NCBI RefSeq assembly: GCF_902713615.1
Contig: NC_052158.1
Coordinates: forward strand, 51,898,539-51,962,538
Direction of reading: 5' to 3'
Source of the DNA: Scyliorhinus canicula
Lineage: Eukaryota
Length of the DNA: 64,000 bases
Within the stretch, counting starts at the first letter, position 1; the number at the start of each line of letters is the position of its first letter. A program made the position numbers and the translations under genes. Below, piece by piece: positions 11,520 to 53,369 of this stretch. The notes under the pieces were generated by a model. That model was not told the origin of the DNA. It saw nothing but the letters and a program-made list of their open reading frames with translations, and made no database searches.

Positions 11520-14500
11520 CCACTTTAAATCACATACTTGATTTCGACACCGATGACCCGAAGGCGCCTTTTCAAGTCGGCATCATAAGAAAAAACAGGG
11601 TGTACCCAAAGCACAGAATCAGCCTCTACTGATACACAGCATCGATCCGGATGACGAGTGGTGTGCCACCCTTACGGTCAACCGGTCCCAAATACGGTTC
11701 CACCTGGACCGCCTCAAGCAGCAGCTGCAAGACCTTCAGGACCAAGGAGTGATCTCCAGGGTCACGGAACCGACCGACTGGGTCAGTTCCATGGTATGTG
11801 TAAAAAAGCCTTCCGGCGAATTGAGAATTTGCATTGATCCCAAGGATCTCAATCGCAATATCATGAGGGAGCACCATCCAATTCCAAAGCGCGAAGAGCT
11901 CACATGTGAAATGGCTCACGCCAAGCTCTTTACCAAACTCAACACCTCAAAAGGATTCTGGCAAATCCAGCTTGATGAATCTAGCAGCAAACTCTGCACG
12001 TTCATTACCCCCTTTGGAAGATATTGCTACAACAGAATGCCGTTTGGGATCATCTCTGCGTCCGAGGTGTTCCATAGGATCATGGAACAAATCATGGAAT
12101 GGATTGAAGGTGTTCGCATCTATGTCGATGACATAATCATCTGGTCCACCACCCCGCAGGAGCACGTTAATCGCCTCCAGCGCATCTTCAGACGGATACA
12201 TGAACATGGCCTCTGCCTCAACAGAGCCGTGCTCTTTTGGTCAGACAGATATCAAGTTCCGAGGGGATCACATCTCCCAATTGGGTGTGCAGCCGGATGC
12301 GGACAAGGTAGCTGCCATCACAGCTATGAGAACGCCAGAAGACAAGAAGGCGGTCCTCCGGTTTTTGGGGATGGTGACATTTTTAGGGAAGTTTATCCTT
12401 AACCTCGCCTCTCACACCACGGCTCTCAGGAACCTGGTCAGGAAGACGACAGACTTCCAGTGGCTCCCTGCCCACAAGCGTGAATGGAGGGAACTCAGAG
12501 CTAAACTAACAACGGCCCCGGTCTTAGCTTTCTTTAATCCAGCAAAAGAGACCAAACTTTCGACAGATGCCAGTCAGTCCGGCATTGGAGCCGTGCTCCT
12601 GCATCGTGATGCGGCCTTATCATGGGCCCCTGTTGCATATGCGTCGTGGGCAATGACCCCACGGAGCAGCACTACAAGCAGATAGAAAAGGAATGCCTGG
12701 GCCTTCTGACCGGTGTTGTGAAATTTCACGATTATGTCTATAGGCTTTCTCAATTCACCGTTGAGACCAACCATCGCCCGCTGGTCAATATAATACAGAA
12801 GGACTTGAACGACATGACGCCTCGCCTCCAGCGTATTCTGCTCAAGCTCCGGAGATAAGACTTCCAGCTGGTGTACACCCCGAGCAAGGACCTCATCGTT
12901 GCGTACACTCTCTCCAGGTCAGTCAACACTCCATATGACCCAGTGGGGTTTGTCTGCCAGGTTGACGCCCATGTGGCATTCGCGGCCTCCAATCGCCCTG
13001 CCTCAGATGAACGCCTTGTCCAAATTCGCTGCAAAACGGTAGCTGACCCCCTGCTACAGCATGTCATGCACCACCTGATGGACGGGTGGCTCAAGGGTCA
13101 ATGCCCTCAGTTCTATAACATCAGAGACGATCTGGCTGTAATAGATGTGGTTCTTCTGAAACTGGACCGCATTGTGATCCCGCTTAGCATGCACCAGCTT
13201 GTCCTGGAACAATTCCGCGAGGGCCACCTGGGCGTGGGGAAGTGTCGCCGACGGGCCAGAGAGGCTGTGTACTGGTCCGGTATCAATGATGACATCGCCA
13301 ACACAGTGCTCGACTGTCCCACCTGTCAGCGCTTTCAGCCGGCCCAACCATGAGAGACACTGCAGCCCCATGAGTTGGTCACGTCACCTTGGACCAAGGT
13401 GGGCATCGACCTGTTCCACGCGCTGGGGAGAGACTATGTCCTGATCGTGGACTACTTTTCAAGGTGATACGGTTGCACGACCTCACTTTGTCCGCAGTCT
13501 TTCGGGCATGCATAGAAACCTTTGCTCGACACGGCATCCCACTCACGGTGATGTCAGACAATGGCCCCTGCTTCACCAGCCAGGAATGGTCCAGCTTTGC
13601 CTGGTGGTACAATTGTGCCCATGTGACGTCCAATCTCCTGTACCCCCAATCCAACGGCAAAGCGGAGAAGTGAGTACACATCGTCAAGAGGCTCCTATGC
13701 AAGGCTGCCGATGCTGGGTCTGATTGCTACCTTGCCTTACTGGTCTATCGCTCCTCTCCCCTGTCCACTGGCCTGTCGCTCCGCCCCCCTGTCCACTGGC
13801 CTATCGCTCCGCCCCCCTGTCCACTGGTCTATCGCTCCTCTCCCCTGTCCACTGGCCTGTCGCTCCGCCCCCCTGTCCACTGGCCTGTCGCCAGCCCAAC
13901 TACTCATGAATCGCACCCTGAGGATGACGATGCCGTCCATCCATGTCCCAGACCTCGACCACGTCCCGGTTCTTCGCCGGATGCAGCTGTCTCGTGCACA
14001 GCACAAGGCGGCTCATGACTCCCGTGCCGCTGATCTCCCCGCTCTCGCTCCAGATGACAACATTCGCGTCCATCTTCCGGATGGTGGCTGGTCTGCAACC
14101 GCTGTTGTCCTTAGGCAGGTGGCCCCCCCGCTCATTTCTGGTTCGGCTACCAGATGGCTCTGTTCTGCGCAGCAATCGACGCGCCCTTCGCCTCATTCCA
14201 CGCCCGCCACGTGATCCTCCGGTGTTGCCTCGCCCTCATGCTGACCCTGCCACGGACTGTGCAGAGTTTCCTGTCACTCTGCCTCCCCCTGACTGTGATG
14301 CCGTCCAGCCCGCTCCTGAACCGGCGGCTCTCGACCCACCCCTGAGGCGGTCAACCAGAATTCATCGCCCACCTCAGAGACTAAACTTATGAACTTTGCA
14401 AAGTTATGGACTCTCTGACTTGTTTTGTTGCCTTGTTTGATCGTTTTCCTGGTTAATGCTGTTCTCGTTCCTCTTGTTGCATACTGCTTCTCTGCACCAG

Positions 14501-16063: not shown

Positions 16064-16135
16064 CCGGAAAGTGGAATCGAAAGTAACTTCAGATCAACCG
16101 AAACTCAACAGCAACCCGCCCCCATCACATTGGCG
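16064..16135 (-). promoter_or_regulatory. PSMB8 proximal promoter: ETS, ISRE/EICE, IRF-like site, GC box and CCAAT
   Basis: CCGGAA at 16064; GAAAgtGGAAtcGAAAgt at 16067-16084; AACCGAAACT at 16096-16105; CCCGCCCC at 16115; ATTGG at 16129; all 45-115 bp upstream of the ATG. Confidence 0.7.
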
Positions 16136-16137
16136 GC

Positions 16138-19100
16138 TGAGGGGTCGGGGTCACATTGGAATTCGGGACTGAGGGGGTCACATTGGGATTTGGGGCTGTA
16201 GGGGGTTAATTTGGGAATGGACAATGAGGGGGTTAATTTGGGAATGGACAATGGGTTTGGGCAATGAGGGGGTCACATTGGGATTGGGGACTGAGGGGGT
16301 CACATTGGGATTGGGGACTGAGGGGATTCACATTGCGATTGGGGTCTGAGGGGGTCACATTGGGATTGGGGACTGAGGGGATTCACATTGGGATTGGGGA
16401 CTGAGGGGGGGTCACATTGGGATTGGGGACTGAGGGGGTCACATTGGGATTGGGGTTTGAGGAGATTCACATTGGGATTGGGGACTGAGGGTGTCACATT
16501 TGGATTGGGGCTGAGGGGGTCACATTGTGTTTGGGGACTGAGGGGATTAACATTGGGATTGGGGACTGAGGGGGTCACATTGGGATTGGGGACGGAGGGG
16601 GGTCACATTGGGATTGGGAACTGAGGGGTCACATTGGGATTGGGGTTTGAGGAGATTCACATTGGGATTGGGGACTGAGGGGGTCACATTGGGATTGGGG
16701 ACGGAGGGGGGTCACATTGGGATTGGGAACTGAGGGGGTCACATTGTATTTGGGGACTGAGGGGATTAACATTGGGATTGGGGACTGAGGGGGTCACATG
16801 GGATTGGGGACGGAGGGGGGTCACATTGGGATTGGGAACTGAGGGGGGTCACATTGGGATTGGGGTTTGAGGGGATTCACATTGGGATTGGGGGACTGAG
16901 GGTGTCACATTTGGATTAGGGGCTGAGGGGATCACATTGTGTTTGGGGACTGAGGGGATTAACATTGGGATTGGGGACTGAGGGGGTCACATTGGGATGT
17001 GGACGGAGGGGGGTCACATTGGGATTTGGACTGAGGGGGTCACATTGGGATTGGGGACTAAGGGGTTTCATATTGGGATTGGGGTCTGAGGGGGTCACAT
17101 TGGGATTGGTGACTGAGGGGATTCACATTAGGATTAGGGTTTGAGGGGATTCACATTGGGATTGGGATTGAGGGGGTCACATTGGGATTGGGGACTGAGG
17201 GGGTCACATTGGGATTGGGGACTGAGGGCATTCCTATTGGGATTGGGGACTGAGGGGATTCATATTAGGATTGGGGTTTGAGGGGATTCACATTGGCATT
17301 GGGGATTGAGGTGGTTCGCATTGGGATTGGGGATTGAGGGGGTCAGATTGGGATTGGGGACAGAGGCAGCTCACATTGGCATTGGGGACTGAGGGGATTC
17401 ACATTGGGATTGGGGACTGAGGCTGGTCACATTGTGTTTCCGGACTGAGGGGATTCACATTGGGATTGGGGTTTGAGGGGGTCACATTGGGATTGGGGAC
17501 AGGAGATTCACATTGGGATTGGGGTCTGGGGTCACATTGGGATTGGGGACTGAGGGGGTCACATTGGGATTGGGGATTGGGGTCACATTGGGATTGGGGA
17601 CTGAGGCTCGTCATATTGGGATTGGGGACTGAGGGGATTCACATTGGGATTGGGGACTGAAGGGATTCACATTGGGATTGGGGTTTGAGGGGGTCACGTT
17701 GTGTTTGGGGACTGAGGGGGTCACATTGGGGTCTGGGGTCATATTGGGATTGGGGACTGAGGGGGTCACATTGGGATTGGGGATTGGGGTCACATTGGGA
17801 TTCGGGACTGGAGTCATATTGGGATTGGGGACTGAGGAGGGGTCACATTGGGATTGGGGATTGAGGCTGCTCACATTGGGATTGGGGACTGAGGGGATTC
17901 ACACTGGGATTGGGGACTGAGGGCCTCACATTGGGATTGGGGACTGAGGGGGTCACATTGAGATTGGGGACTGAGGGGAATCACATTGGGATTGTGGACG
18001 GAGTCTGGTCACATTGCGATTTGGGGCTGAGGCTGGTCACATTGGGATTGGCGACTGAGGGGATTCACATTGGGATTGGGGACTGAGGGGCGGTCACATT
18101 GGGATTGGGGACTGGGGTCACATTGGGATTGGGGATTGGGGTCACATTGGGATTGGGGACTGGGGTCACATTGGGATTGGGGCCTGAGGAGGGGTCACAT
18201 TGGGTTTGGGGACTGAGGGGGTCACATTGGGATTGGGGACTGAGGGGGTCACATTGGGATTGGGGACTGAGGTCACATTGGGATTGGGGACTGGGGTCAC
18301 ATTGGGATTGGGGACTGAGGCGGGGTCACGTTGGGTTGATGGACTGAGGGGGTCACATTGGGATTGGGGACTGAGGAGGGGTCACGTTGGGTTGATGGAC
18401 TGAGGGGGTCACATTGGGATTAGTGACTGAGGGGGTCACATTGGGATTGGGGACTGGGGTCACATTGGGATTGGGGACTGGCGTAACATTGGGATTGGAT
18501 ACTGGGGTCACATTGGGATTGGGACTGAGGAGGGGTCACATTGGGTTGATGGACTGAGGGGGTCACATTGGGATTGGGGACTGAGGAGGGGTCACATTGG
18601 GTTGATGGACTGAGAGGGTCACATTGGGATTATGGACTGAGGGGGTCACATTGGGTTTGGGGACAGAGGGGGTCACATTGTGATTGGGCACTGAGGCTGG
18701 TCTCATTGGGATTGGGGCCTGAGGGGGTCACATTGGGATTCGGGCCTGAGGGAGGGGTCACATCGGTATTGGGGACTGAGGGGGTCACATTGGGACTGGG
18801 GACAGAGGGGATTCACATTGGGATTGGGGACTGAGGGAGGGGTCACATTGGGATTGGGGACTGAGGGGTCACATTGTGATTGGGTTCTGAGGGGTCAAAT
18901 TGGGATCGGGGACTGAGGGGGTCACATTGGGATTGCGGACTGAGGGGATTCACATTGTGAGTGTGGAAGTCAGGGGATTCAAATTGCGATTGGGGACGAG
19001 GATTTCACAAAGGGATTGGTGATTGAGGGGAATCACATTGTGATTGGGAATTGAGGGGATTCACATTGGGATTGGGGACTGAGGGGGTCATATTGGGATT

Positions 19101-20219
19101 GGCGACTAAGGAGGTCATATTGGGATTGGGGATTCAGTCCGTCACTTTGGGATTGAGGACTGAGGGGATTCATATTGGGATTGGGGACTGAGGCTGGTCA
19201 CATTGGGATTGGGGTCTGAGTGGGTCACATTGCGATTGGGGATTGAGGGGGTCACATTGGGATTGGGGACTGATGGGTTCACATTGGTATTGGGGCCTGA
19301 GGGGGTCACATTGGGATTGGGGACTAAGAGGGTCACTTTGGGATTGGGGACTGAGGGGATTCACATTGGGATTGGGGACTGAGGCTGGTCACATTGGGAT
19401 TGGGGTCTGAGGGGGTCACTTTGGGATTGGGGACTGAGGGGATTCACATTGGGATTGGGGACTGAAGGGGGTCGCACTGGGATTGGGGATTGACGGGATT
19501 CACATTGGGATTGGGGGACTGAGGGGATCACGTTGGGTTTGGGGTCTGAGGGGGTCACATTGGGATTGGGGACTGAGGCTGGTCACATTGGGATTGAGGT
19601 CTGAGGGGGTCACATTGGGATTCGGGAATGGGGTCACATTGGGATTGGGGACTGACGGGATTCACATTGGGTTCAGGGACTGAGGGGGTCACATTGGGAT
19701 TAGGCACTGAGGGGGTCACATTGGGATTAGGCACTGAGTGGGTCACATTGGGATTGGGGAATGGGGTCACATTGGGATTGGGGACTGGGTCACATTGGGA
19801 TTGGGGACTGGGGTCACATTGGGATTGGGGACTGGGGTCGCATTGGGATTGGGGACTGATGGGGTCAGAGTGGGATTGGTGACTGATGGGGTCAAATTGA
19901 GATTGGGGACTGGGGTCACATGGGGATTGGGGACTGGGGTCACATTGGGATTGGGGACTGAGGAGGGGTCACATTGGGATTGTGGACTGAGGGGGTCACA
20001 TTGGGATTGTGGACTGAGGGGGTCACATTGGGATTGTGGTCTGAGGGGATTCACATTGGGATTGGGGACTGAGGCTGGTCACATTGGGATTGGGGACTGA
20101 GGGGATTCACATTGGGATTGGGGACTGAGGGGTCACATTGGGATTGGGGACTGAGGGGATTCACATTGGGATTGGGGACTGAGGCTGGTCACATTGGGAT
20201 TGGGGACTGAGGGGTCACA
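16138..20219. repeat. G-rich minisatellite, ~27-bp unit GGGATTGGGGACTGAGGGGGTCACATT, running into an assembly gap
   Basis: About 150 degenerate units with 21-27 bp variants; N gap at 20220-20719. Confidence 0.97.
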
Positions 20220-21179: not shown

Positions 21180-22100
21180 TCACTGTATGGACATCGTTGT
21201 GTCGGGACTCCGCGTCGGTTTCTGGCCTGATAGGTGTCATCAGCCACGACTGCAACCCCTGTTGCCTCGCAGCCAACCCTACAGCCGGTGGGGGGGGGTG
21301 CCCGTCAAACATGCCAGGGATCACCGAGTATGCCAGGATGAAGGAATAGTGCACGCTGCTGGGTGTTGGGCACAGACATGCATGATGCGCATCTGTTGAT
21401 CGCAGACCAGCTGGATGTTTATGGAGTGGAACCCCTTTCTGTTTGTATATAGAGGCCTATTATCCGCAGGTGCACGTAGGGTAACATGCATGCCATCGAT
21501 CACCCCCTGGACCCAGGGCATCATGGCGATGGCAGTGAACCCTGCAGCCTGGGCATCCTGGAGGCCGTGGTCCACATGGAACAGAATGTACTGGTCCTCC
21601 TATGCATATAGGGCCTCCGTGACGGCGCTACTGAACCTGTGTACCGATGTCTGCGAGATCACAGACAGGACCCGACTTGGTGAATGGAAGGACCCTGCTG
21701 CATAGAAGTTGAGGATGGCGGTCACCTTGACAGTCACCGGGAGCGGGTGTCCTCCTCCATACCGCTGTGGTACCAGGTGTGCCATCATCTGGCAGATGTG
21801 TCCCTCTGCTCATTCGCAGTCTCCGTCTGCATATCGGTCCGGCATGTTCTCGACTGACATGCGGCACCGGTACACAAGGGGCCTCATCTGGTGCCCCCTT
21901 GTCACCTCCTCCTCCTCCTCGGCTTGTTAGGCAGCCGGCCCTCCAGCCTGTGTGGCCGCTACCTGCCCCTCTCCAGCCGGCTCCTCTGCTGCAGCCTCCA
22001 CCTCCTCTCTGAGCGACCCCTGCTCACGCTACCACAGGGAACCCCCACCCCCCCCACCTCTGGCCAGGCTGGTCATGTGGAATGCATGAGGGTTGAATGG
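21180..22100 (-). pseudogene. PIF/Harbinger (HARBI1-like) DDE transposase relic
   Basis: HPLPVTVKVTAILNFYAAGSF and VQGVIDGMHV..NRKGFHSINIQLVCD motifs; frameshifted. Confidence 0.85.
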
Positions 22101-22981: not shown

Positions 22982-23844
22982 TGTAGCCACCTGGATTGGC
23001 CACTTCCTCACACAAAATGGAAGGACGCAAAGGTTACAGGGAAAAATGGACATTGGCAAAGAAACAAGCAGTTTACAGAATTCCCTGTATTCTAGCTGCT
23101 AAAGAAACCAGACAGAATTGTAACTAACACGGGCAGCAGGGTAGCATGGTGGTTAGCATAAATGCTTCACAGCGCCAGGGTCCCAGGTTCGATTCCCGGC
23201 TGGGTCACTGTCTGTGCGGAGTCTGCATGTCCTCCCCGTATGTGCGTGGGTTTCCTCCGGGTACTCCGGTTTCCTCCCACAGTCCAAAGATGTGCGGGTT
23301 ACGTGGATTGGCCAGGCTAAATTGCCCTTAGTGTCCTAAAAAAAAAAAATAAGGTTAATGGGGGGATTGTTGGGTTACTGGTATAGGGTGGATACGTGGG
23401 CTTGAGTAGGGTGATCATTGCTCGGCACAACATCGAGGGCCGAAGGACCTGTTCTGTGCTGTACTGTTCTAATTCTAACAAGCTGCGCATATTAAGTGAG
23501 CGATTCACGGTGATTCCCAGGCACAATGGACACAACAGTTAACTGCAATCGCTACATTCTATAGAAGGTCAGACATCCCGGCGCCAGTTCCCTTATCCAG
23601 ATAAGTATTGGCCTGTTAGTGGTAGTGATAGCCTAGTCTTTTAGTTTTATATGCATGAGTAGTAGATAACTGTATTATAATAAACGCGTCTTGTTTGAAC
23701 TTACTAACTGGTGTATTGAGTTATTGGTCTGAACCTGAACTTGAATCTTGTGGCGGTATCATAAGGATACCTGGCGACTCTAGAGCTAAGGAATAAAACA
23801 GAGCTAAATTGAGTGTAAAGTACACTCACCCAGAACGAGCAACA
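22982..23844 (+). mobile_element. 5' LTR (HE1 insertion at 23131-23474; ~400-bp internal deletion)
   Basis: Colinear with 35274-36183; SINE flanked by CTAACA direct repeat. Confidence 0.93.
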
Positions 23845-23849: not shown

Positions 23850-23872
23850 TGGCGAACTCTGACGGGACTCGA
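23850..23872 (+). promoter_or_regulatory. Primer-binding site, tRNA-Arg(UCU)-like
   Basis: TGGCGAACTCTGACGGGACTCGA versus the complement of the vertebrate tRNA-Arg-TCT 3' end as recalled (TGGCGACTCTGGTGGGACTCGA); 5 nt after the LTR. Confidence 0.6.
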
Positions 23873-24185: not shown

Positions 24186-25860
24186 ATGGCCATGCAGGCA
24201 ATGGAACGCCTCATGAACCCAGAGCAGTTCGTGGTCGCAGCAACCAGCAGCAGCAGAGTAGTTCAGTGTCCCGTTTGGGAGCTGGAACTCAGGAAGTACC
24301 TCAAAGGGAAAGGAGGTGAGTTTTGTTCGAATGAGGAGATAGGTCCCGGGAGTATAGGGCATATTTGGTGGGAGAACCTGTCTAAAATTCATAAGAAAGG
24401 TTTGAGTAAAACACGTAAGCCGATGGCAATTGTGCCCTGCTTGGCACAATTGTGAGGCACAGAGGAGGTCGTCAGGACGCTCCGAGCAGATTTAGAGGAG
24501 AGTAACAGAATGAGCAAAGTGGATGTCAGGGACATCGAGAGAGAGAATTTAGAATTAAGGCAAAAGTTGGCAGATAAGGATAGAGAGGTGGATGATTCCA
24601 AGAGGGCACACCAGTCTTGTCTAGCCCATCTGAGCAGCTCCCAGGTACAATACGAAAAAGCCTATCAAGATGTGCAGTGTGCAGTCTTGATAAGACAAGA
24701 ATCAGAGAAGCAGGTAGAGACACTGAAGAAGCAGTGTTGCAACCTGAAGGCAGCTTTAAGGGCACTCCATGCTGCCACCACTGAGCAAAGGTAAAGCACA
24801 GTGGACCATGCTAAGTGTAGGAAACAGATTGCGGAGCTGCAATCTCTGCTTTCTGTGCAGAATGGCTTCCAAAAAACTTTGGAACACAATTAGAGGAAGA
24901 GAATGAACCAGATTGGCAGGAGTTAAGCAAGACAGCACAGCGATATGTTCAGGGAACATGTGCACTAGAAACGCAGCAGAAAAGGGAAGCGCCCAAACCC
25001 CCCACAGATCAGATAGCACCCGCACCAATGAACCCAATCACTACCCAACGAAAAGCAACCGCAGACGGCGCACCCGAGATCACCTACACCACCCCCTTAA
25101 CCGTGACTCAACTAAGGGACGCGTGTGAGAAAATCACCCCGTTCCTCCCCACCTCAGACCCCCACCAATTCTTTGCAAGAGTTAAACAACAGGGGACCAT
25201 GTACGGCCTCGATGCGCGAGAGCAGGTTAAGCTCACAGTTGAGTTTAGACTCATCAGTAGTTGCAGCCCTCCCCGACCCACAGAACGTTGGAGGAGGCAC
25301 CCTCGAAGAAATGCATACAGCTATTTTGGATGCAATAGGATATAACAGAGGAGACCCAGTTGAAGGCCTAAACAAGTGTAGGCAGAAAAAGACCGAGCAC
25401 CCCACAGCATTCGCAGGAAGGCTGGGGATTCACTTCACTGCAGTTTTCGGTGAATTAGACCACGCACATTTGACCGAAGATAACATGGTTAAATGGACCC
25501 GTACTATTATCTCCCACGCCACAGAGGCAGGACAGAAAGCCTGCTCTAATTAAGACCCCTCAGAAGAGACCCATAATTAAAAATTGGTCTTGAAAAGATT
25601 GTCCCGCGCTTGGGAGTAATCTGTGCACAGTAAGAGCTCACCAAAACCCCGCATGGGTAAACGAGGGACAGAACAGCCCCCCACAGAAGTCACAGGAATG
25701 TTTTAACTGCGGACAGTTAGGGCATTTTGCTAGAGAATGCAATGCACCACAAAAACCTCAGAGAGGCCAGCAGACAGGCACTCTGAACAGGAATAGAGCA
25801 AAGCCTATTCACAGTATAGGGACGCAGTCAGGACAGACCAATGTGTACGGAACAGACTGA
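24186..25860 (+). pseudogene. gag: gag (coiled-coil region, capsid-like region, one CCHC knuckle), several stops
   Basis: ATG at 24186; CFNCGQLGHFAREC at ~25698-25740; terminal TGA at 25858-25860. Confidence 0.85.
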
Positions 25861-28800
25861 CGGTGTTCGGGCTCCCCCACTTGGGTCTGTGACACACTCT
25901 GGGACACATCCGGATGACCGGTAGTCACAGCGAAAATTCGGGGAAAGCCCATAGAGTTACTCTGGGATACAGGAGGGTCCCGCACGACCATTAATTCCTC
26001 CACTACACCACAGGCAGACACGTGGCCCACAACAGCCACAATAACACTCAGCGAATTTACAGGACACTCACAGCAAGGAACCATTACAGCCCCTCTACCA
26101 ATTCAGCTAGGGAATATCTCCACCAGTTGTTTTAGTTGATCTGCCCCACACAGCAGAACACATGCTGGGCATTAATTTTATGAATGCACACAGCCTGTCG
26201 TTCGACCCAGTCAATCAGTGTGTCTGGCGAATGGCAAGGTCTGAAAGAGCACCCGCAATGCTCACAGTAGGTGAGTATGAAAATAGGATTAGCGCAGTAG
26301 GCGACTATTGTTTTGACCCGACCACGCTCAGCATGACAAACAGGTTAGGGCAGTTTTAAACAAACACAGGACAGCATTTGCCAGTCACCATCACGACTGC
26401 GGCAGGATGACTGGACAAGTTCAGATTACAGGACCTGACCCGAGACCACAAAGACAGTATAGATTTCCCCTGGAAGCAGAGGAAGAAATTGGAAAGGTTA
26501 TAGAGAGCTTATTAGAGCAGGGCGTACTAAGGACAGTAGCCTCCACTAATAATGCCCCTATTTGACCAGTGAGGAAGCCCGACGGATCATGGCGTCTGAC
26601 CATTGATTATCGGGAACTCAACAAAGTTACCCCAGCAGTAGCCCCCATGGTAGCAACAAGTCCCGAGACCATGCTCAAGCAGGGACTCAACTCCAAGTAT
26701 TTTACGGTTTTGGACATTAGCAACGGCTTTTGGTCAATCCCATTGGCGAAGGCGTGCCAGTACAAATTTGCCTTTACTTCTAAAGGTCAGGAGTGCACGT
26801 GGACATGCCTCCCACAAGGATTCCACAACTCCCCCTCCATTTTCCACCGACAGCTGGCAAATGGACTAGCAAAATTTTCCCAACCCGAATGTCTGGTACA
26901 GTATGTGGACGACCTATTACTGCAGACAGACACCAAGGAAGAGCACATCATGCTTCTGTCTGAACTCCTACAACTCTTACAGTCAATCGGATGTAAAGTA
27001 AACCCCAGAAAGGCCCAACTATTGGAGAATAAAGTGATGTATTTGGGTACAATCATCACGCATAGCAAACGCGAGATTGAGTTCAAAAGAATTGACTCGA
27101 TCGTCAAATTGCCCCTTCCCCAAAATGTTTCAGCCCTCCGGTCATTTTTAGGACTGGTTGGGTATTGTCGGAACCATATCGATGGTTTTGCGACCAAGGC
27201 AGCCCCACTTTCAGACCTCCTTAAGAAAGGAGCCCCTTGGGAATGGCTTCTGCAGCATACAGAGGCTTTGGAAGATTTAAAGAAAGCCCTTAGCGCAGCT
27301 CCTGCACTACAAGTTCCAGGCCCGCTTTCCCCCTATGCAATTGAGGTAGCAAGCACAGATCTGACCCTCTCGGCCGTGCTCCTTCAGGAACGGCACGAGC
27401 AGCTACGACCAGTGGCTTATGCCTCCAGACTTTTAGACCCAGTAGAGCAAGGATTTTCAGCCTGCGAAAGGCACCTACTTGCAGTATTCTGGGCAGTACA
27501 GAACTTTTCTTACATTACCGGACTAAACCCCATAACGATTCTGACCGAACACCCCCCCACACAGCTTCTATTGGATGGACGACTGAAGGACGGTTCAGTT
27601 AGCCAAATTAGAGCAGCTAGGTGGACCCTTCTTTTACAAGGAAGGGACATCACAGTTAAACGGACTAAGACACACCTTCTCAGCAGACAACCTCCAATAC
27701 CCAGGACAACCCCATGATTGCGAGATAGTACCCCCCTCCACAACACAGGACCCTTCATTGCAAAGACACCCCCCAAGAAGATAGGAAGTTCAACTCAAAG
27801 CCCCCAGCACACAGACACGTGTGGTGTGTCCCCTTGTAGATTTATGTGGATGGTTCATCCACTGTTTTTAATGGTGAGCGCATTACAGGATGCGGCATCT
27901 ATGTAGAAGTGCACAGGGACGCGCATTAGAAGAGATATCTTTAAAGTTACCTGGTCACTTAGGCACGCAGGCAGCAGAACTCACGGCCATAGCTTACATA
28001 GTGGACCACCCAGATTCGTTCCCCAGCCCAGCAGATATATATTCTGACAGTCTATATGTCTGCAACAGTTTAACGGATTTCCTACCCATGTGGAAGACAA
28101 GAGGCTTTGTTTCCGCGGATGGAAAGCCCCTTCCATCAGCCCCATTGCTCCGCCATATCCTAGAACAGGCAAAGGATAGGATTTACGGAATAATTAAAGT
28201 AAGAAGTCATCATCGGTCATCCCCCCTGGAAATGTGAAAGCCGACGCACTGGCTAAAGCAGGTTCCAGGCACGGACATTTTTGGACACCCCCAGCTAGCG
28301 CCCCAGCTAGCGCCCCTGTGAGTTCAGTTCAGGTCTCACAGACAGACATTGAGGATCTAGTACAGGCACAAAGACAGGACAGCAATCTCAGGGAGATTAG
28401 TAGAGGAAGGTTTTTGGCCCCTTACGACAAGTTTAAACACGCTCTGACCACACACGAGGGTGTGGTTATGAACGATAAATTGTATGTGGTTCCTGTGAAA
28501 GACACGAATCAAATTATTGCCTTATTCTGTTGCACGTTTTACTATGGGCGTAAAACGCGTTTATTGGAGTGTATTAACACGCCTCCGAGTTCGACGTGTG
28601 CTTAACACTGCTAGGCTCTGTTCTATGTAATTATTTAAGCTCTGGAGTCGCCAGCTGCCGTATAGGCAACGTCACAAGTATTCCAAGGTCAAATTCAAAG
28701 TAATAAAGATGATACACCGATTAGTCAAGTTCAAACGATCAATATTTATTATACAGTTAATAATAAATACTCATGCACACACACTAAGAGACTAAGCTAC

Positions 28801-31055
28801 AACTAAACATAAGCAAACAGAATACTTATCTAACAGGAACAGGCAAGGTCAGAGAACGAGGCCTTCGTCCTGGTTTTGTCTGCAGCCTTCAGCAAGCGTT
28901 CTGGCACTTGGGAGTCTAGCGGGCTTGGATCGCGTAGCGAGCGTTGAACTTACGGTTTCGGCGGCTGGTGCTCAACGGCTGGAGTCAGGATACCAGGTGT
29001 CAGTCGGGGCCGGAGCACAGGTTTAACAGACCGGACAACACGAGGTCCCTATCTTTTATAGGGGTTCCGTTGTCCTTCCCTCTTCTCGGGCGGGCTCTAC
29101 CTATTGGATCAATTTCTTATCGATACTGGATTAATTCCCCAATGCGAGGGGGTCTCCGTGATGGAGGGGGCGTTTCTTATGTCCTTTTGTTCGGAGGTTT
29201 CTGGTGCCTCGATGTCTGGGTCTTGATTGGAATGTGTCCATTCAGAACCAAATGTATCTATTGTGTGGGTGTTCAAGTCTGATGGCCTCATTAGCATGCA
29301 AAGCGTTTTGCCATTTGCACCTAGCTAAGGTCTCTTCACCTGAGCCCAAACTGGTTTCTGCTGCTGCAGAATGCAAACTGCTCTTTGCAGACTGCTGTTC
29401 TGGCTGAACTGTCTGTTTCTCAGCAGCCTTCCATTTTAGTTTGGCTCAGTGTCCATTTTGCGTGGCCAGCATGGCTACAATTCCATGACAGTCATGGACA
29501 TCAAGGGATAGACCCCACCACAGCCCACCTGAGACAGCTCTGTTGGTGGCCAAATTTGAGAGAGGATGTAACACATTACATCGATAATTGTTTAATTTGT
29601 GCACAGAATAACCCGGAGAGGTATTCAAAGAAGGCACAGCTCAGTTACTCTCGCCCCGTTAATGGCCCCTGGACAAACCTCCAGATCGATTTTATAGGAC
29701 CATTGCCCCCTTGAAGGAATGGCTATAAATACGTACTGGTGGTCATTGATACGTTCACGAAATGGGTAGAGGCTTTCCCATCTCGAACTAACACAGCCAA
29801 AACTACCGCAAAGATCCTGACACACCACATCTTTACTAGATGGGGACTCCCCAGAAGTATTGAGTCGGACCAGGGATCACATTTTACAGGACGGGTCATG
29901 AAGAAAGTCCTGACCATATTCGGCATTAAACAAAATTTCCACATTGTGAACCACCCCCAGTCCAACGGTATAGTGGAACGCATGAATCGGACTCTAAAAT
30001 CGACCCTTAGAAAGATGGTCCAGGAAAACAGTACAACTTGGGATTCGGTGCTCCCATTCGCACTTATGTTCTTAAGGAATACGGTTTCAGCTTCAACAGG
30101 TTTCATCCCACACACACTCATGACCGGACGCCCCATGAAAGGTTCTGAATTCCTTTTAGGACTTTACATGACCAGCCCAGATGTGACGCCCCTCACACAC
30201 GAGACAGCAGTAAAGCAATTAGTGGAAAATGTAAGATCGGCTCAATTAACAGCCGCAGTTAAATTGGGAAAGAAAAAGAAACAGAGCAAGGCTTGTTTCG
30301 ACAGAACAGTACATTCCACAGAGTTTCAGGTTGGACAACAGGTAATGTTATCTGTGTATAACCCCAGCATGTTTTTGGCCCCAAAATGTTCCGGCCCGTA
30401 CTCAATTGTGGACAAAATCAGTCCGTCAGTATATAAGATAAAGTACCCCAATGGGAAGACTGCCTGGTTCCATATCAACCAGTTAAAGGCATATGGAACA
30501 CAGTCCAACCACACACACCATGTCCTGCTAGATGCAGCAGAACACCACGCCCCGCCCACAAGAGTCACATTTCCACCCTCCCCCTCACAGACCAGCACCT
30601 CATCGGACTCGACCTCGACTCCGCCCATTGACTTCAGACCACGCCCCGAAACGCCCACAAGCTGCCACAGCAGAGACAGCGACTGTGACTCTGACGACAG
30701 CCACAGCATGCCTCTCTACTGCCCTGATACAACAGACCCCACACACACCGACTACGAACCTGACTCCAGTGATTTGGAGATCACTTACATTAAGACACCA
30801 GACCCACACCCAGACCCACCGCCCAACTATGACGACCCCGACAACGTTCACACAAATTTGGACACGACAATTTGGCACCGAGACAACTCTTACAGGCTCG
30901 TCCGGAATGACGAGAAAGACCCTCGGTCACACAACTCACTCATAGCATGCCTGATCCATACAAGGTTATGGGATCCGGGAGAAGAGGATGACTTTAAGTC
31001 TGACTCCCGACACGGCAACCCCTTTGCGCCCCTGTTCGCAGAAGATAATGATTGA
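25861..31055 (+). pseudogene. pol: pro-pol: protease, RT, tether, RNase H, integrase with long C-terminal extension
   Basis: LLWDTGGS; LDISNGFWSIP, LPQGFHNSP, YVDD; degenerate RH (EVAS/ERHL/TEH); second RH (YVDGSS at 27843, QAAEL, YSDS, KADALAK); IN HHCC, IDFIGP, SDQGSHF, ERMNRTLK, GPY. Confidence 0.92.
28528..29479 (-). mobile_element. Antisense solo LTR of a related family inserted between RH and IN
   Basis: TG...CA ends; TSD ATTC at 28524-28527 / 29480-29483; removing it restores NQIIALF|HDSHGHQG; minus-strand TATAAAAG and AATAAA. Confidence 0.9.
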
Positions 31056-31893
31056 GGTGTCCAGATGATGTAAAAAGAGGAACCGCTTGAGAGATAAACG
31101 GTGTCCTTTTCTGATGGAACCTGCAGTATGTTTGTTGCATGTTTGTTTGTTTGTGTTTTGTTTGTTTTCCAGCAACAGTAACTCTGCAGCCACTTGCACA
31201 GTTTGTCCGCCGATACCCACGGGAACTTGCCAAGCTTGCTGGTCAGCTAGGACAGCTGAGAGCTTGCCCGGACCCCATTTCATAACTGCTCTTCTGTTTG
31301 GAGGACAGAAGAGGCAACCCCAATGATGACTACATTCTTGCCCATTCGTTTCAGGTCGCTCAGGCAGTGGAGAAACGGCATTGGGGACCCGCCCTGTCTG
31401 AGGACCACCCCACTGGTCCACTAAGCTTGGGTACAGCACAGCACGCCCTACCCGGGGATTCCACCCAAATCTTACCCGTCGTGGCCCATACGCAACTCAT
31501 TCGAAACTCTTATTTCTAAAAAGTTTGGTTTTGTTTCCTTTGTTTAGGTAGCCCTTTGGTTGCCATTCCAGATGCTATTTACATCCATGAACATTGGGAT
31601 GGTAAATTGCAAAGCCTGCAAGACGGCTCGCAGTGGTACAGTATTTGAGTATATGCCTGGTCCTAAATTTGTTTAGAAAAAAAAATGAGGGGAGTCACAG
31701 GGAGTGACTTGACCATTCATAAAGGGAAATTGACACAAGAGGACAGATATACTATCATTCGAGGTATTAAGCAGAACACTAACAGACACTATGTTTGATC
31801 CCATAGCTTTCGGACGTTCGAATGAGCGACCAAAGCAGGATCAGAGCAGGGTCAAAGCACTAAAAGAGAACAGGAAGAGAAGAGAGAAGGAAA

Positions 31894-32229
31894 ATGACAA
31901 CGCCTACTGTATTTTTCCTTTTAATATGTTCATATTTGCACGCAAACGCGAACCCCCTTTCCCCTATGACCCCGGCCGTTAATGTTTCCCAGACACAGAC
32001 CACTCCAAGCCCAGTAGACGGCAACAGTACCCCGACCTGGTGTACCAGATATCTAACTTGGTACTCCTTGTCATATGTCGTAGAGTCACTTTTGGCACTA
32101 GCGATTGTCTGCATCATAGTTCAGACCCTTCGGATAAGGAGAGCATACCGCTCTCGCGCCTTGACAGTATATAGAATGCAATCCCCTATTTTCGGATTTC
32201 ACCAGTCCCCCCAACCCCTTGACGTGTGA
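31894..32229 (+). CDS. Small predicted type-I membrane glycoprotein (111 aa) in the env position
   Basis: Hydrophobic signal (VFFLLICSYLHANA), S/T/P-rich ectodomain with NVS and NST sequons, TM (SLSYVVESLLALAIVCIIVQTL), basic stop-transfer RIRR; A at -3. Confidence 0.6.
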   Translation: MTTPTVFFLLICSYLHANANPLSPMTPAVNVSQTQTTPSPVDGNSTPTWCTRYLTWYSLSYVVESLLALAIVCIIVQTLRIRRAYRSRALTVYRMQSPIFGFHQSPQPLDV

Positions 32230-32416: not shown

Positions 32417-35118
32417 GAATAAGGATGACATCCGGGCAATAGTAAGGGATGACATCGGTGCTATGGAGGATAAGGTTGAATCCATTTGGGTGGAAATCAG
32501 GAATAGTAAGGCGAAAAAGTCACTGATAGGAGTAGTCTATCGGCCACCAAATAGTAACGAGATGGTGGGGCAGGCAATAAACAAAGAAATAACTGATGCA
32601 TGTAGAAATGGTACAGCAGTTATCATGGGGGATTTTAATCTACATGTCGATTGGTTTAACCAGGTCGGTCAAGGCAACCGTGAGGAGGAGTTTATAGAAT
32701 GTATCCGCGATAGTTTCCTAGAACAATATGTAATGGAACCTACGAGGGAACAAGCGGTCTTAGATCTTGTCCTGTGTAATGAGACAGGATTGATTCATGA
32801 TCTCATAGTTAGGGATCCTCTCGGAAGGAGCGATCACAATATGGTGGAATTTAAAATACAGATGGAGGGTGAGAAAGTAAAATCAAATACTAGTGTTTTG
32901 TGTTTAAACAAAGGAGATTACAAGGGGATGAGAGAAGAACTAGCTAAGGTAGACTGGGAGCTAAGACTTTATGGTGGAACAGTTGAGGAACAGTGGAGAA
33001 CCTTCCAAGTGATTTTTCACAGTGCTCAGCAAAGGTTTATACCAACAAAAAGGAAGGACGGAAGAAAGAGGGAAAATCGACCGTGGATATCTAAGGAAAT
33101 AAGGGAGAGTATCAAATTGAAGGAAAAAGCATATAAAGTGGCAAAGATTGCTGGGAGATTAGAGGACTAGGAAATCTTTAGGGGGCAACAGAAAGCTACT
33201 AAAAAAGCAATAAAGAAGAGTAAGATAGAGTATGAGAGTAAACTTGCTCAGAATATAAAAACAGACAGTAAAAGTTTTTACAAATATATAAGACAAAAAA
33301 GAGTGGCTAAGGTAAATATTGGTCCTTTAGAGGATGAGAAGGGAGTTTTAATAATGGGAAATGAGGAAATGGCTGAGGAACTGAACAGGTTTTTTGGGTC
33401 GGTCTTCACAGTGGAAGACACAAATAACATGCCAGCGACTGATAGAAATGAGGCTATGACAGGTGAGGACCTTGAGAGGATTGTTATCACTAAGGAGGGA
33501 GTGATGGGCAAGCTAATGGGGCTAAAGGTAGACAAGTCTCCTGGCCCTGATGGAATGCATCCCAGAGTGCTAAAAGAGATGGCTAGGGAAATTGCAGATG
33601 CACTAGTGATAATTTACCGAAATTCACTAGACTCTGGGGTGGTCCCGGTGGATTGGAAATTAGCAAACGTGACGCCACTGTTTAAAAAAGGAGGTAGGCA
33701 GAAAGCAGGAAATTATAGGCCAGTGAGTTTAACTTCGGTAATAGGGAAGATGCTGGAATCTATCATCAAGGAAGAAATTGCGAGGCATCTGGATAGAAAT
33801 TGTCCCATTGGGCAGACGCAGCATGGGTTCGTTAAAGGCAGGTCATGCCTAACTAATTTAGTGGAATTTTCTGAGGACATTACCAGTGCAGTAGATAACG
33901 GGGAGCCGATGGATGTGGTATATCTGGATTTCCAGAAAGCCTTTGACAAGGTGCCACACAAAAGGTTGCTGCATAAGATAAAGATGCATGGCATTAAGGG
34001 TAAAGTAGTAGCATGGATAGAGGATTGGTTAATTAATAGAAAGCAAAGAGTTGGGATAAATGGGTGTTTCTCTGGTTGGCAATCAGTAGCTAGTGGATCC
34101 TCAGGGATCCGTGTTGGGCCCACAATTGTTCACAATTTACATTGATGATTTGGAGTTGGGGACCAAGGGCAATGTGTCCAAGTTTGCAGATGACACTAAG
34201 ATGAGTGGTAAAGCGAAAAGTGCAGAGGATACTGGAAGTCTGCAGAGGGATTTGGATAGGTTAAGTGAATGGGCTCGGGTCTGGCAGATGGAATACAATG
34301 TTGACAAATGTAAGGTTATCCATTTTGGTAGGAATAACAGCAAACGGGATTATTATTTAAACGATAAAATATTAAAGCATGCCGCTGTTCAGAGAGACTT
34401 GGGTGTGCTAGTGCATGAGTCACAGAAGGTTGGTTTACAAGTGCAACAGGTGATTAAGAAGGCAAATGGAATTTTGTCCTTCATTGCTAGAGGGATGGAG
34501 TTTAAGACTAGGGAGGTTATGTTGCAATTGTATAAGGTGTTAGTGCGGCCACACCTGGAGTATTGTGTTCAGTTTTGGTCTCCTTACTTGAGAAAGGACG
34601 TACTGGCGCTGGAAGGTGTGCAGAGGAGATTCACTAGGTTAATCCCAGAGCTGAAGGGGTTGGATTATGAGGAGAGGTTGAGTAGACTGGGACTGTACTC
34701 GTTGGAATTTAGAAGGATGAGGGGGGGATCTTATAGAAACATTTAAAATTATGAAGGGAATAGATAGGATAGATGCGGGCAGGTTGTTTCCACTGGCGGG
34801 TGACAGCAGAACTAGGGGGCATAGCCTCAAAATAAGGGGAAGTAGATTTAGAACTGAGTTTAGGAGGAACTTCTTCACCCAAAGGGTTGTGAATCTATGG
34901 AATTCCTTGCCCAGTGAAGCAGTTGAGGCTCCTTCATTACATGTTTTTAAGGTAAAGATAGATAGTTTTTTGAAGAATAAAGGGATTAAGGGTTATGGTG
35001 TTCGGGCCGGAAAGTGGAGCTGAGTCCACAAAAGATCAGCCATGATCTCATTGAATGGCGGAGCAGGCTCGAGGGGCCAGATGGCCTACTCCTGCTCCTA
35101 GTTCTTATGTTCTTATGT
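32417..35118 (+). mobile_element. CR1 LINE (APE+RT, 5'-truncated) inserted in the provirus 3' region
   Basis: ORFs 32463-33170, 33303-34145, 34093-34746 and 34751-35023; tail (TTCTTATG)n. Confidence 0.94.
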
Positions 35119-35273
35119 CCCCTATGACATAGCGCCAAATAGAGATTGTGGATAAAAATTTTCTGCATAGTTGAGGAAAGTGCAGAGGCCATGGAACTCG
35201 CTGAGGTCAGGGAACGGAGACACCGTACTTAGGTGATCCTTCACGCTTTCGCGTTAGGATCACAAGGAGGGAG

Positions 35274-36183
35274 TGTAGCCACCTGGGTTGGCCACTTCCT
35301 CACACAAAATGGAAGAACGCAAAGGTTACAGGGAAAAATGGACATTGGCAAAGAAACAAGCAGTCTGCAGAATCCCCTGTATTCTGGCTGTATACAGAAA
35401 CCAGACAGAATTGTAACTAACGAGCTGCGCATATTAAGTGAGCGATTCACGGTGATTCCCAGGCACAATGGACACAACAGTTAACTGCAATCGCTACATT
35501 CTATAAAAGGTCAGACATCCCGGCGCCAGTGGAGTCTGAAACAAAGGACACAAATAAGGTGGAAGGAACCGCCCAGTGATCGAGGAATAGCCCCGTTATT
35601 GGGGAAATTCAAATCAATCGATTGGGAAGAGACCCAATCGATTGAAAGTTTATAGAGGGTCCGCCCAGAAGGGCGCGAAGCCCCTGGGACCTACAAAAGT
35701 CAGATCCCAGGACTGATTCGTTCTTCTTGACCAGCCGGCACTCCCAGCAGAACACCTTTGCAGCAGAAGACCTTGAGAAGGAGAGGCCTGGTCAGCAGCC
35801 GCCATCAAGTAAGTGTCATACAATGCACGCTACGAGGGTAGACACTCCTGACCCCTTTAGTCCACAACTATTGGAAACCTGCGGATCCAGGACAAAGCTA
35901 GAGGCCATTGTTCCCTGATCCGGCAGTTCCCTTATTCCAGATAAGTATTGGCCCGTTAGTGGTAGGATTAGCCTAGTCTTGTAGTTTTATATGCACAATT
36001 AGTAGATAACTGTATTATAATAAACGTGTATTGTTTGAACTTACTAACTGGTGTATTGAGTCATTGGTCTGAACTTGAACTTGAATCTTGTGGCGGTATC
36101 ATAAGGATACCTGACGACTCTAGAGTTAAGGAATAAAACAGAGCCATTTGAGTGTAAAGCACACTCACGCAGAACGAGCAACA
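35274..36183 (+). mobile_element. 3' LTR, preceded by PPT AAGGAGGGAG (35264-35273)
   Basis: TG start after the purine tract; TATA-like CTACAAAAG at ~35690; AATAAA at ~36018 and 36132; ends CAACA followed by the TSD. Confidence 0.93.
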
Positions 36184-46734: not shown

Positions 46735-49351
46735 GTAATTGTTGTTATAAAATCACAAATGCCTCAATAAAATATTTTCCAAAAAAATACTGGGATAAAT
46801 TATTGAGTTACCTTCCAGAGGAAAAACAAACTGACCTGAAAGAGTTATTAATATCACATGGGCAAGTTTGTGGAAATAAGTTGGGAAGTACTAAAATGGT
46901 TATACATGATGTAGATGTGGGAAATGCTATTTCAATTAAACAACATCCATATAGACTTAACCACCTAAAATTGGCACAGGTTCAAAAAGAAATTGAAAGC
47001 ATGCTTAAAAATGGCATAATTGATGTGGGTTGCAGCCAATGGAGCTGATGGCACCGAAACTGGACGGTACCCAAAGATTGCATGTGGACGATAGAAAGGT
47101 TAATGCAGTTACAAGAACGGACCATGGTTGGAGGACTGCATTGAGAAGGTGGGATAATCAGCTTTTATCTTCAAATTGGATTTACTTAAAGGTTACTGGC
47201 AGGTACCTTTATCCGAAAGGGCAAAGGAGATTTCAGTTTTTGTGATTCCAAATGGTATATACCAATTCAAAGTTATGCCATTTGGCATGAAAAACGCCCC
47301 AGCCACATTTCAACGGTTAACTAACAAAGTCATTTCAGGATTACCCAACTGTGCGGTGTACATAGACTATCTGGTGACTTTTAGTCAGACATGGAAAGAA
47401 CATTTGAAGCATCTTTTGGAGTTATTCGATCGACTTCAGGGGGTGGGTTTGGTGGTAAACCTAGCCAAAAGCAAGTTTGGAAAAGCACAAGTCACGTTCC
47501 TTGGCCATACAATTGGACATGGATAAATGGTCCCACAGGATGTGAAAATTAATTTATTGTGGAGTTTCCAATACCCTTGACATAAAGAGAAATAATAATA
47601 ATATTTGCTTTTTGTCACAAGTAGGCTTCAATGAAGTTGTGAAAAGTTGGCACGAGTGGTATTTACCGTAAATTTGTGCTGAAGTTTAGCAGCGTGGTTG
47701 CTCCACTGACAGACTTGCTGAAGAAGCCTAGCAAGTTTTAGCGGATGGCGGAGTGTCAACAGGCATTTGACGGCCTGAAGGCTGTGTTAACGACTGCTCC
47801 TGTGTTGGCCACCACAAATTACACAAAACCATTCAACCTGGCTATCAATGCGAGTGATGTGGGCGTAGGTCCTGTGCTCTTGCAAGAAGACGCCGAAGGA
47901 ATAGAGCGGCCTTCTGGGTATTTTACCCCAAAATGAAATGATCACCAGAGGAAGTATTGAACAATTGAAAAGGAGACTATGAGCTTGGTGCTGGCTTTGC
48001 AACGTTTTAACATTTATGTTATCAGCAATTCACCTAAAACAATTATAGATACTGATCATAATCCAATGATGTTTTGGGACAAATTCAAGAATAAAAGTGC
48101 CAGACTGTTTTGATGAAGTTTATTATTACAGCCATTTAATTTAAAACTTTACATGTGGCAGGACGAGAAAATGTGATGGCCGCTGCTTTGTCACGAATGT
48201 GATAGTGAAGCAGGTTCGATGCTGGAAAAATGGACTGTATTCTTGGACATGTTTGCCTGTTTTGATGATTTAAAATGTATGTATGTTTATTGTCAAGTGT
48301 TAGGAATGGGCAAGCGAAAAGGTGAAAAATAAAACCATCTTTGAAGTTGATGGGTTTTTTTTTTCTTGAGGGAGGTGTCACGGGAGTCTTCCTTTAAGAA
48401 AAGTTTTTGTCTTATCACATGGCTTCAGTGATGTCATTTTGTGGGTGGAGCTGAGCTGTGGCTGAGAGGTTTTTTAAAGTTTCATTTTCAGTTTGACTGC
48501 TGTGGACTCAGAAGGAGAAAAAAGTGTTTATTCCTGTCTTTCCATGGTTTCATTTTAAAGAATTGTTCCAGAAAAATCTCTCATTGATTATAACTATCTG
48601 CTGTGGGAACTTAAAATATATAGTTTGCTTTCTGGGAGGGTTTAAACCTGGTGAGACGGGATCAGAATCTCAGGGAAATCCAGTCTCATTCATACAGAGT
48701 GCTGGGCCACGCCCTTGTAAAGGGGCTTTTGGTTTACAGGATTGTGTGTTTGAATTGAATAGTGAAGAAGGAATTCATTAAATGTCATACATAGATTATT
48801 GTAGCTGTGTGGGGCCTCACGGTAGCATGGTGGTTAGCATCAATGCTTCACAGCTCCAGGGTCCCAGGTTCGGTTCCCGGCTGGGTCACTGTCTGTGCGG
48901 AGTCTGCACGTCCTCCCTGTGTGTGCGTGGGTTTCCTCCGGGTGCTCCGGTTTCCTCCCACAGTCCAAAGATGTGCGGGTTAGGTGGATTGGCTATGCTA
49001 AATTGCCCGTAATGTAAGGTTAATGGGGGGATTGTTGGGTTACGGGTATACGGGTTACGTGGGTTTAAGTGGGGTGATCATTGTTCGGCACAACATCGAG
49101 GGCTGAAGGGCCTGTTCTGTGCTGTACTGTTCTATGTTATGTTTGCAATTGATAAAAATTCTTGATGTGTGTTTATGTTAACTAAGTTCTTAGAATAAAG
49201 CTTATTTTTTGAGCAAAGTGTCTGGGAAGACTATTGAATTACACCTTCAGTGAAAGCTCTCGTGCTCATCCTAAACAAATTCAACATAAAGGTTGTAGGT
49301 CAGGTGAACTTCATAATACACTTTGGAGTTTCTAAGCCCCAGCCCATAACA
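46735..49351 (+). mobile_element. Gypsy 3' portion ending RT-RNase H then LTR (Gmr1-type layout); LTR 48376-49351 with an HE1 insertion at 48811-49140
   Basis: IKQHPYR, DLLKGYWQV, MPFGMKNAPATFQ, YIDY, INASDVGVG, ENVMAAALSRM* at ~48200; PPT GAGGGAGG then TGTCA...TAACA. Confidence 0.82.
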
Positions 49352-53152: not shown

Positions 53153-53268
53153 AATGAATAATTTTACAAGATACTGAACTGCACCCAGATTCCACCCGAG
53201 GGGGTACAGTAAACACCAGCTGGAAAACTCCAGTTTCACCACTCACTATTGATCAATAATACTCATAC

Positions 53269-53323: not shown

Positions 53324-53369
53324 CTGTTAATGGAAGAACAAGCATTAATAAACTGTTTACCATCAGTGG

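Follow-up and report, generated by a model that had tools for sequence, protein, structure and literature searches.

Vpu and the adenovirus E3 proteins are small viral transmembrane (TM) proteins that act as immune modulators, and foamy viruses need Env to bud. Endogenous retroviruses (ERVs) of vertebrates that lack env are generally regarded as confined to the cell that produces them. As set out in the accessible part of one source, env-less ERVs multiply well by intracellular copying (10.1101/2021.11.23.469661). In insects, env-less LTR elements are described that encode a TM protein of 63–107 amino acids with an amphipathic ectodomain and a basic patch, its gene sometimes lying 3′ of pol; in Drosophila, capsid transfer has been shown and a role of this protein, sORF2, in the transfer has been proposed, and fusion by sORF2 was not reproducible in cultured cells, according to the available sections of that report (PMC11952523). 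In the reovirus FAST protein p14, a basic motif at a place equivalent to that of the motif described below drives Golgi export and is required for fusion (PMC3952855, available in part).

The window analysed here is a stretch of 64,000 nucleotides from the catshark Scyliorhinus canicula (NC_052158.1). It contains an open reading frame (ORF) for a predicted small type I membrane protein of 111 amino acids (31894..32229, + strand; ATG at 31894, TGA at 32229, translation stop-free), which lies downstream of pol in an endogenous retrovirus. The element has paired LTRs, a target-site duplication (GGAT, 4 bp, on both provirus flanks), a primer-binding site (PBS), a polypurine tract and the order gag-pro-RT-RH-IN, in which the position of the protease is deduced and has no Pfam match. 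All its features are on the + strand unless stated. The 5′ LTR (TG...CA, 22982..23844) holds a SINE-like insertion (~23129–23474) and is missing ~260 bp; its identity with the 3′ LTR is ~94% across 530 aligned bases. A PBS-like stretch 3′ of the LTR (23850..23868) is found at the same position in most copies; its two ends are constant, and its middle differs in both sequence and length between copies, young ones included. Broken gag (24186..25860; five stops and three frameshifts) encodes an N-terminal coiled-coil-like region and one CCHC knuckle, and has no Gly2. Broken pol (25861..31055; three stops, eight frameshifts and one insertion) encodes RT (YVDD), a tether-type RNase H-like domain, a second RNase H and integrase. 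A solo LTR of a related subfamily sits reversed inside pol (28528..29479, − strand; 4-bp duplication ATTC, full length, 76% identical to young LTRs). Between pol and the ORF are a conserved non-coding block with approximate bounds 31274..31634, mapped by its distance to the ATG from copy L075 (7593–7950), and a branch-point-like motif with a splice acceptor (31767..31806), the AG of which has its last base at 31806, leaving 87 nt to the ATG. Downstream of the ORF come a LINE that is missing from sister copies (32423..35114), which we take to be of CR1 type, the polypurine tract (35264–35273) and the 3′ LTR (35274–36183), with a TATA box, a splice-donor-like site and AATAAA.

Pfam identifies RT, the RNase H-like tether (PF17919/PF17917) followed by the second RNase H (PF00075), integrase and the CCHC knuckle. 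The best solved relatives of the RT in a PDB comparison are MLV and foamy RT, and the nearest named pol proteins are from frog and coelacanth, at 53–57% identity. In a quick RT tree of 50 rows, the gypsy rows form a separate clade with 100% support, and the catshark family falls outside the Gag_p30/MLVIN_C rows, whose domains are of gamma/epsilon type, near frog, Xenopus and coelacanth rows, on a backbone with 26% support; the references were without labelled SnRV, ERV-L, foamy or Lokiretrovirus rows, and Lokiretroviruses also carry a dual RH. With its tether and second RNase H, and an RT outside Ty3/gypsy, pol is, as judged from its sequence, of Retroviridae type. The label "class III-like" is provisional because the tree backbone is weak and holds no labelled class III reference. 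In young copies (L071–L089) gag and pol share one reading frame, as gag-TGA-pol; the TGA near 3001 is followed by CGG, presumably a read-through context. Pol frames of 1408–1411 amino acids occur at many loci genome-wide.

The 111-residue ORF is the third gene of this large class III-like catshark ERV family and is not specific to one locus. As first-look candidates, a genome search gave 1,845 at the DNA level (40 scored) and 5,375 at the protein level (150 scored), figures that are not copy numbers. So as not to select on the ORF itself, 40 loci were taken from 146 integrase matches, 20 because they ranked high and another 20 for their long pol frames; in 38 of these 40, pol is followed by the ORF. 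Ten more loci were reached with distant pol queries, and nine have the ORF, the stretch of the tenth being without its 3′ side. No long env-type frame lies downstream of pol in the 40 integrase-chosen loci, and none of the 50 pol-chosen loci is an env-bearing member of the family. We also considered that distant pol queries might reveal an env-bearing sister family; these searches put the same catshark family on top. The 20 copies nearest to the window copy have the same short layout after pol. Among the 20 loci with long pol frames the ORF is open in 18, two of which frameshift in the last residues, and the median LTR identity is 99.6% (19 measurable copies, two of them at 100%). Near-identical LTRs together with open ORF and pol indicate that the family was recently active. 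Over all 90 loci, 53 passed our intactness filter, the motif part of which missed three further open frames, and a second Scyliorhinus species keeps the protein at 54% identity. The count of intact copies, a check that the initial annotation had proposed, gives only 11 among the 30 copies nearest to the window copy, which speaks against co-option at this locus. Two internally deleted copies, L037 and L064, keep LTR sequence and the region of the small ORF with most or all of pol gone, and copies of this type could be non-autonomous carriers of the gene.

The protein is 111–118 amino acids long across the family. It is made up of a predicted signal (residues 1–19), a Thr/Pro-rich linker with sequons, an amphipathic W/C/Y helix (48–58), a TM segment (~58–76) with an invariant Glu64, a basic motif and an SP-x-F-x-F-x-Q tail. 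In the window copy the hydrophobic N-terminus comprises residues 5–13 by hydropathy, the sequons are at N30 and N44, C50 is the sole cysteine between signal and TM, and the top-scoring TM 19-mer is residues 58–76, followed by the basic stretch and a tail of ~35 amino acids. The initial annotation had described these elements (signal peptide, two sequons, one Cys, TM and basic stretch), and translation and hydropathy agree with it, the signal peptide still being a prediction made by hydropathy and the −3/−1 rule only. That rule is satisfied in 49 of the 53 intact copies, even though their N-termini are divergent. All 53 have the W-C pair and 52 have at least one sequon; a single ectodomain cysteine is invariant family-wide, and a second one, 11 residues earlier, is confined to young subfamilies. 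The 11-residue segment before the TM has a hydrophobic moment of 0.87–1.06, computed without a shuffle control. A low-confidence AlphaFold model (pLDDT 63) places helices at 3–19 and 49–94. When the post-pol region was simulated in 2000 Markov controls, none contained an ORF with the two hydrophobic segments. The basic stretch quoted in the initial annotation is present, but in a shortened form: a 12-nt in-frame deletion near 32135 removes four codons relative to sister copies, and the longer motif is retained by 51 of the 53 intact copies. A furin site and a CX6CC motif are each absent from the ectodomain of all 53, as the same annotation had said of this copy. None of the 53 has Gly2 (N-myristoylation), and a YxxPhi-like tail pattern is found in just six.

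Selection was measured pairwise in 52 copies, namely the 53 intact ones minus one duplicate locus. Between subfamilies dN/dS is 0.20–0.25, with bootstrap upper limits ≤0.40; since pairs share ancestry, these codon-bootstrap intervals are somewhat too narrow. Constraint is strongest in the core, residues 48–84 (pre-TM, TM and basic motif), at 0.07–0.10, followed by the tail at 0.11–0.16; signal and linker are at 0.30–0.65, and the N-terminal ectodomain is poorly constrained (0.26–1.25). In the core dS is high or saturated (0.9–2.3) and dN is low. The features kept by selection are the first sequon, the W-C...W-Y amphipathic segment, the TM with its invariant Glu, the basic motif and the SP-x-F-x-F tail. 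A sliding test of all three frames gave 0.8–3.6 for the other two frames over the core and tail windows, so that constraint is limited to the frame of the ORF; over the 900 nt upstream, 90-nt windows gave no consistent frame signal. The conserved non-coding block, for which we suggest a cis-acting role, is 76–86% identical between subfamilies, whereas the DNA of the ORF is only 43–74% identical. Changes private to a single copy have a dN/dS of 0.53–0.83 and shared changes 0.21–0.53. The gene thus appears to be one that is selected during replication of the element and decays after insertion. We also asked whether U3, or the stretch from pol to the TM gene, holds another accessory ORF, and found no consistent frame-specific signal; a 135-residue U3 frame seen in some young copies is unsupported as a gene.

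A branch-point and acceptor motif precedes the ATG by 72–103 nt, as a strict pattern in 45 of the 53 intact copies and as variants in the other eight. Transcription was assessed from raw-read runs X22–X24 only, by alignment to young copies. The young copies are transcribed, as seen in RNA reads, a check proposed at the outset: reads of X23 and X24 fall almost entirely on the strand that sense RNA would give if the library is stranded. Depth after pol is ~3–8 times that over pol (34–60 versus 3–10 in X23, and 89–229 versus 21–40 in X24), and the other of the two alignments gave a similar picture; deleted copies, a 3′ bias or a promoter within the element could also produce this step. The step is at ~2600 in L073, just after pol, and adjoins a short-repeat region (L075 7350–7590) that differs strongly between subfamilies. 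The two RNA-read alignments to young copies list no splice joints, so the subgenomic mRNA is something that we infer. Ten database proteins from two Scyliorhinus species have the ORF region at their C-terminal end; in the nine models inspected (the tenth, P0128, is an isoform) host or unknown sequence is joined shortly upstream of the start, in three of them at the same residue. Gene models of this kind rest on RNA junctions found by the annotation pipeline. These catshark models ending in an ERV exon (P0118–P0122 and P0126–P0130) include a HEPACAM2-like protein, the EP3 receptor, a SUGCT-type CoA-transferase, KIAA1958 and others. In the HEPACAM2-like model the ERV exon adds a TM and a basic tail to Ig domains.

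A homology search with the single protein gave 13 candidates, none with E ≤ 1. A profile of 23 copies, run against 1.84 billion representatives, gave five matches, all of them Scyliorhinus gene models, and eight longer proteins of the same kind; neither an Env nor any homologue from beyond Scyliorhinus was among its matches. Protein collections cover unannotated repeats poorly, so this result does not establish absence from other sharks. P0121, P0122 and P0126–P0130 were considered as Env-sized proteins and set aside as host genes carrying the ERV exon. Pfam gave nothing significant; the best match, TMEM156 (E = 0.0017; 18 of 23 members with E ≤ 1), we read as generic TM similarity. The best ESM Atlas score was 0.88, below the lead threshold of 0.9, and a Foldseek viral search with the AlphaFold model gave no match with E ≤ 0.001, so no fusogen was matched by sequence, atlas or fold. 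We conclude that the ORF is very probably a conserved third gene of an env-less ERV family. The initial annotation had proposed a novel accessory gene replacing env; as regards gene status and position this is upheld by the family-wide occurrence, the purifying selection, the gene's own acceptor and the lack of any Env match.

What the protein does is a matter for more cautious proposals. We tentatively favour, by analogy and at somewhat less than even probability, a surface glycoprotein that stands in for Env and helps particles to pass between touching cells. A spliced or subgenomic mRNA would put the ATG of the ORF first. Signal peptide, sequon and basic motif would carry the protein to the plasma membrane with its N-terminus outside, where the basic/SPIF tail would gather capsids, built from a Gag that lacks the myristoylation glycine; close to the membrane, a W-C-x-x-x-x-x-W-Y helix, amphipathic and invariant, would engage the facing membrane, as proposed for sORF2 and FAST. 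All of these functional steps we infer. Counting for an Env substitute are the presence of the gene in 38 of 40 loci, a dN/dS of ~0.2, the open frame in young copies with intact pol, the acceptor and the sense RNA. Counting against a role in transfer is the efficiency of intracellular copying, which can explain the copy number without a transfer protein. The stronger version, that a vertebrate retrovirus lineage swapped Env for a mini-fusogen with a signal peptide and spreads from cell to cell (possibly from soma to germline), is conceivable and on balance doubtful. If true, it would give the Retroviridae their first equivalent of insect sORF2 and add a new, glycosylated class to the small fusogens.

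Among the alternatives, the one that survives best, though we consider it unlikely, is that the element copies itself intracellularly and that the protein is an accessory factor which reroutes or degrades a host membrane protein (a restriction factor, a receptor or MHC class I) in the manner of Vpu or E3. The predicted type I topology, with its signal peptide and sequon, suits E3-like proteins better than FAST, and the invariant Glu in the TM and the conserved tail suggest a protein partner. Weak leads point the same way, namely Pfam Hum_adeno_E3A (E = 0.09, in three of 23 members) and adenovirus E3 CR1-beta as the top Foldseek match (E = 0.34), but neither score is significant, the YxxPhi-like pattern is confined to the six tails noted above, and the proximity of an MHC class I exon is meaningless for a family spread over many chromosomes. 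A cell-confined element would, moreover, probably gain little from a surface modulator.

It is slightly less likely still that the protein is a shrunken Env, in which a signal peptide has been fused to membrane-proximal, TM and tail parts and which has been kept to anchor capsid assembly or budding. The env position, the env-like acceptor, the signal peptide and the Trp-rich pre-TM segment would fit such an origin, as would a Gag without Gly2. The nearest named pol relatives are the frog and coelacanth elements, and among the class III ERVs of frogs one that likewise has a gag-stop-pol layout encodes an Env of 441 amino acids, as described in the accessible text of PMC8278194. The initial annotation had held that there is no room for an Env; this is not borne out, since with the LINE removed ~1.5–1.7 kb separate the pol stop from the polypurine tract, a space that is non-coding and would hold a 441-residue Env like that of XtERV-S. 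Against a shrunken Env, the profile has no match in 20 env loci of other families in the catshark genome, several of them with furin site and CX6CC (best E 1.4), nor any Env among the 1.84 billion representatives, where all five matches are from Scyliorhinus. The 50 pol-chosen loci include no env-bearing member, and the longest open frame around a match is 322 amino acids among the 300 matches listed. Gamma-type retroviral Envs exceed 400 amino acids and have a furin site and CX6CC; the catshark proteins have 111–118, and neither motif occurs in any of the 53. On the proposed check for a deleted env remnant, the comparison covered Envs other than the closest ones, those of frog and coelacanth. 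With this scope, and with an env-sized space after pol, a shrunken Env is weakened as an explanation but keeps a modest probability. The 20 env loci (L123–L142) belong to other ERV families with gamma-type Env frames of up to ~570 amino acids, furin site and CX6CC, and their integrases are ~42% identical to that of the family described here.

The initial annotation had also suggested that the window copy is a candidate for co-option next to antigen-presentation genes, and the idea that the host has recruited it for a role beside an MHC class I gene now seems very improbable. The frame is open, a class I exon lies ~24 kb off, and other copies of the family appear as exons of host gene models, which indicates that exonisation does occur in this ERV family. 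However, the candidates number thousands genome-wide, and the window copy with 20 sisters has 17 ORF breaks in 2,383 codons versus 14.7 expected from gag and pol (the rate comes from well-covered sequences, 15 of gag and 14 of pol, and leaves large insertions aside). With the rate of the window copy itself, the frame would be open with a probability of 0.32, and with that of the group the probability is 0.44–0.52, so this frame is likely to be still open by chance. The observation that the ORF is open while gag and pol are broken thus holds for the breakage of gag and pol, and fails as a sign of openness beyond chance. Private changes in the nearest copies are near neutral (dN/dS 0.83), and the four window-only codons (two synonymous, two nonsynonymous) are too few to test. 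The window copy has, in addition, lost four residues from the conserved basic motif and has an extra ATG upstream of its ORF. In a domesticated gene the frame at a single locus would have stayed open for longer than neutral decay predicts, and no such excess is found. We conclude that the window copy is very probably a fossil of an old subfamily and is not co-opted here.

The MHC class I alpha-3 (C1-set) exon is at 55905–56240 on the − strand (its closest match in PDB is a chain of MHC class I, E 1e-23), and no alpha-1/alpha-2 exon was found in the unmasked window sequence scanned. Pfam was run on 288 of the 317 stop-free frames that the window has beyond the element and found no other host domain; four stretches of N could conceal some. 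The family being large and spread over many chromosomes, the proximity to MHC class I is unremarkable. The window also contains two remnants with LTR-type RT/RNase H, one with integrase (11557–13670, +) and one at 47158–47933 (+), a DDE_Tnp_4 transposase fragment (21324–21599, −) and long tandem arrays (~16100–20200, 53200–54400 and 60200–64000) with periods of 27–28, 19 and ~32 bp.

Finally, it is equally improbable that a conserved RNA element merely happens to contain this frame and that no useful protein is made from it: no spliced mRNA or peptide is seen and a conserved non-coding block lies upstream, but dS in the core is high or saturated with low dN in the ORF frame only, and the DNA of the ORF is less conserved than that block.

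A surface protein held under purifying selection through rounds of env-less amplification suggests that env-less vertebrate ERVs may not be confined as assumed, and it offers one small gene on which this can be tested. Screens that demand a full env, as described in the available parts of PMC10435555 and PMC4422223, would miss the family despite its copies with identical LTRs. For annotation, it matters that the ERV gene feeds spurious exons into catshark gene models.

As far as we have searched, a gene for a small membrane protein that occupies the place of env in a shark ERV family with recent activity is previously undescribed. In the literature covered, largely that outside subscription journals and repeat databases, we found no vertebrate ERV in which a small TM gene takes the position of env. 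A published catshark family, ERV-Spuma.0-Sca, has 866-bp LTRs and an annotated env CDS of 1,326 nt (PMC10699275, accessible in part), and four short motifs of our family are absent from the spreadsheet supplement of that paper as seen; the annotated layout may set the two families apart, although they are not firmly separable. Fish foamy-like ERVs resemble the catshark family in having unannotated extra ORFs under purifying selection; in contrast, those of teleosts keep env, and the accessible sections report no TM motif detected in their accessory genes (PMC5210030, PMC5512871). XtERV-S of African frogs resembles the catshark family, provisionally class III-like, in its class III-type pol, in an in-frame stop between gag and pol and in a splice donor upstream of the PBS, for which the catshark element has only a donor-like site in the LTR. 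It differs in its gamma-type Env of 441 amino acids with furin site and CX6CC and in its 5-bp rather than 4-bp target-site duplication (available text of PMC8278194). The nearest named pol matches, at up to 57%, are frog proteins that may differ from XtERV-S itself.

The reovirus FAST proteins are similar in size and architecture, having 95–198 amino acids, one TM, an ectodomain of ~38 residues and a membrane-proximal polybasic motif, all of which the catshark protein matches; cell–cell fusion has been shown for FAST, whereas the catshark protein is known from sequence alone (PMC3952855, PMC3701659 and PMC12945298, each available in part). FAST proteins have no signal peptide or glycosylation and several are myristoylated, according to the accessible text of PMC3952855, whereas the catshark protein is predicted to have a signal and sequons. 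The catshark family has neither an N-myristoylation site nor a dicysteine-bounded hydrophobic patch; the predicted signal peptide, the sequons and the missing myristoylation site place it outside FAST. Insect sORF2 differs in its hosts, which are Metaviridae, in its mostly 5′ position relative to gag, in its length of 63–107 amino acids and in a selected N-myristoylation motif, none of which we find in the catshark family (PMC11952523, available sections). The catshark gene belongs to a dual-RNase-H vertebrate element, encodes a predicted signal peptide and sequons and has no sequence match to sORF2, and the word "shark" occurs nowhere in the main text of PMC11952523 as available. The likeness lies in the overall design. 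In the Drosophila MDG1 group and other insect LTR retrotransposons an env-less element encodes a short protein with a single TM, an amphipathic motif and a basic patch, and in seven of 22 lepidopteran cases the gene is downstream of pol (PMC11952523, in the part available); the catshark family likewise has, on the sense strand of an env-less LTR element and 3′ of pol, a gene for a small protein with a TM, an amphipathic segment and a basic patch.
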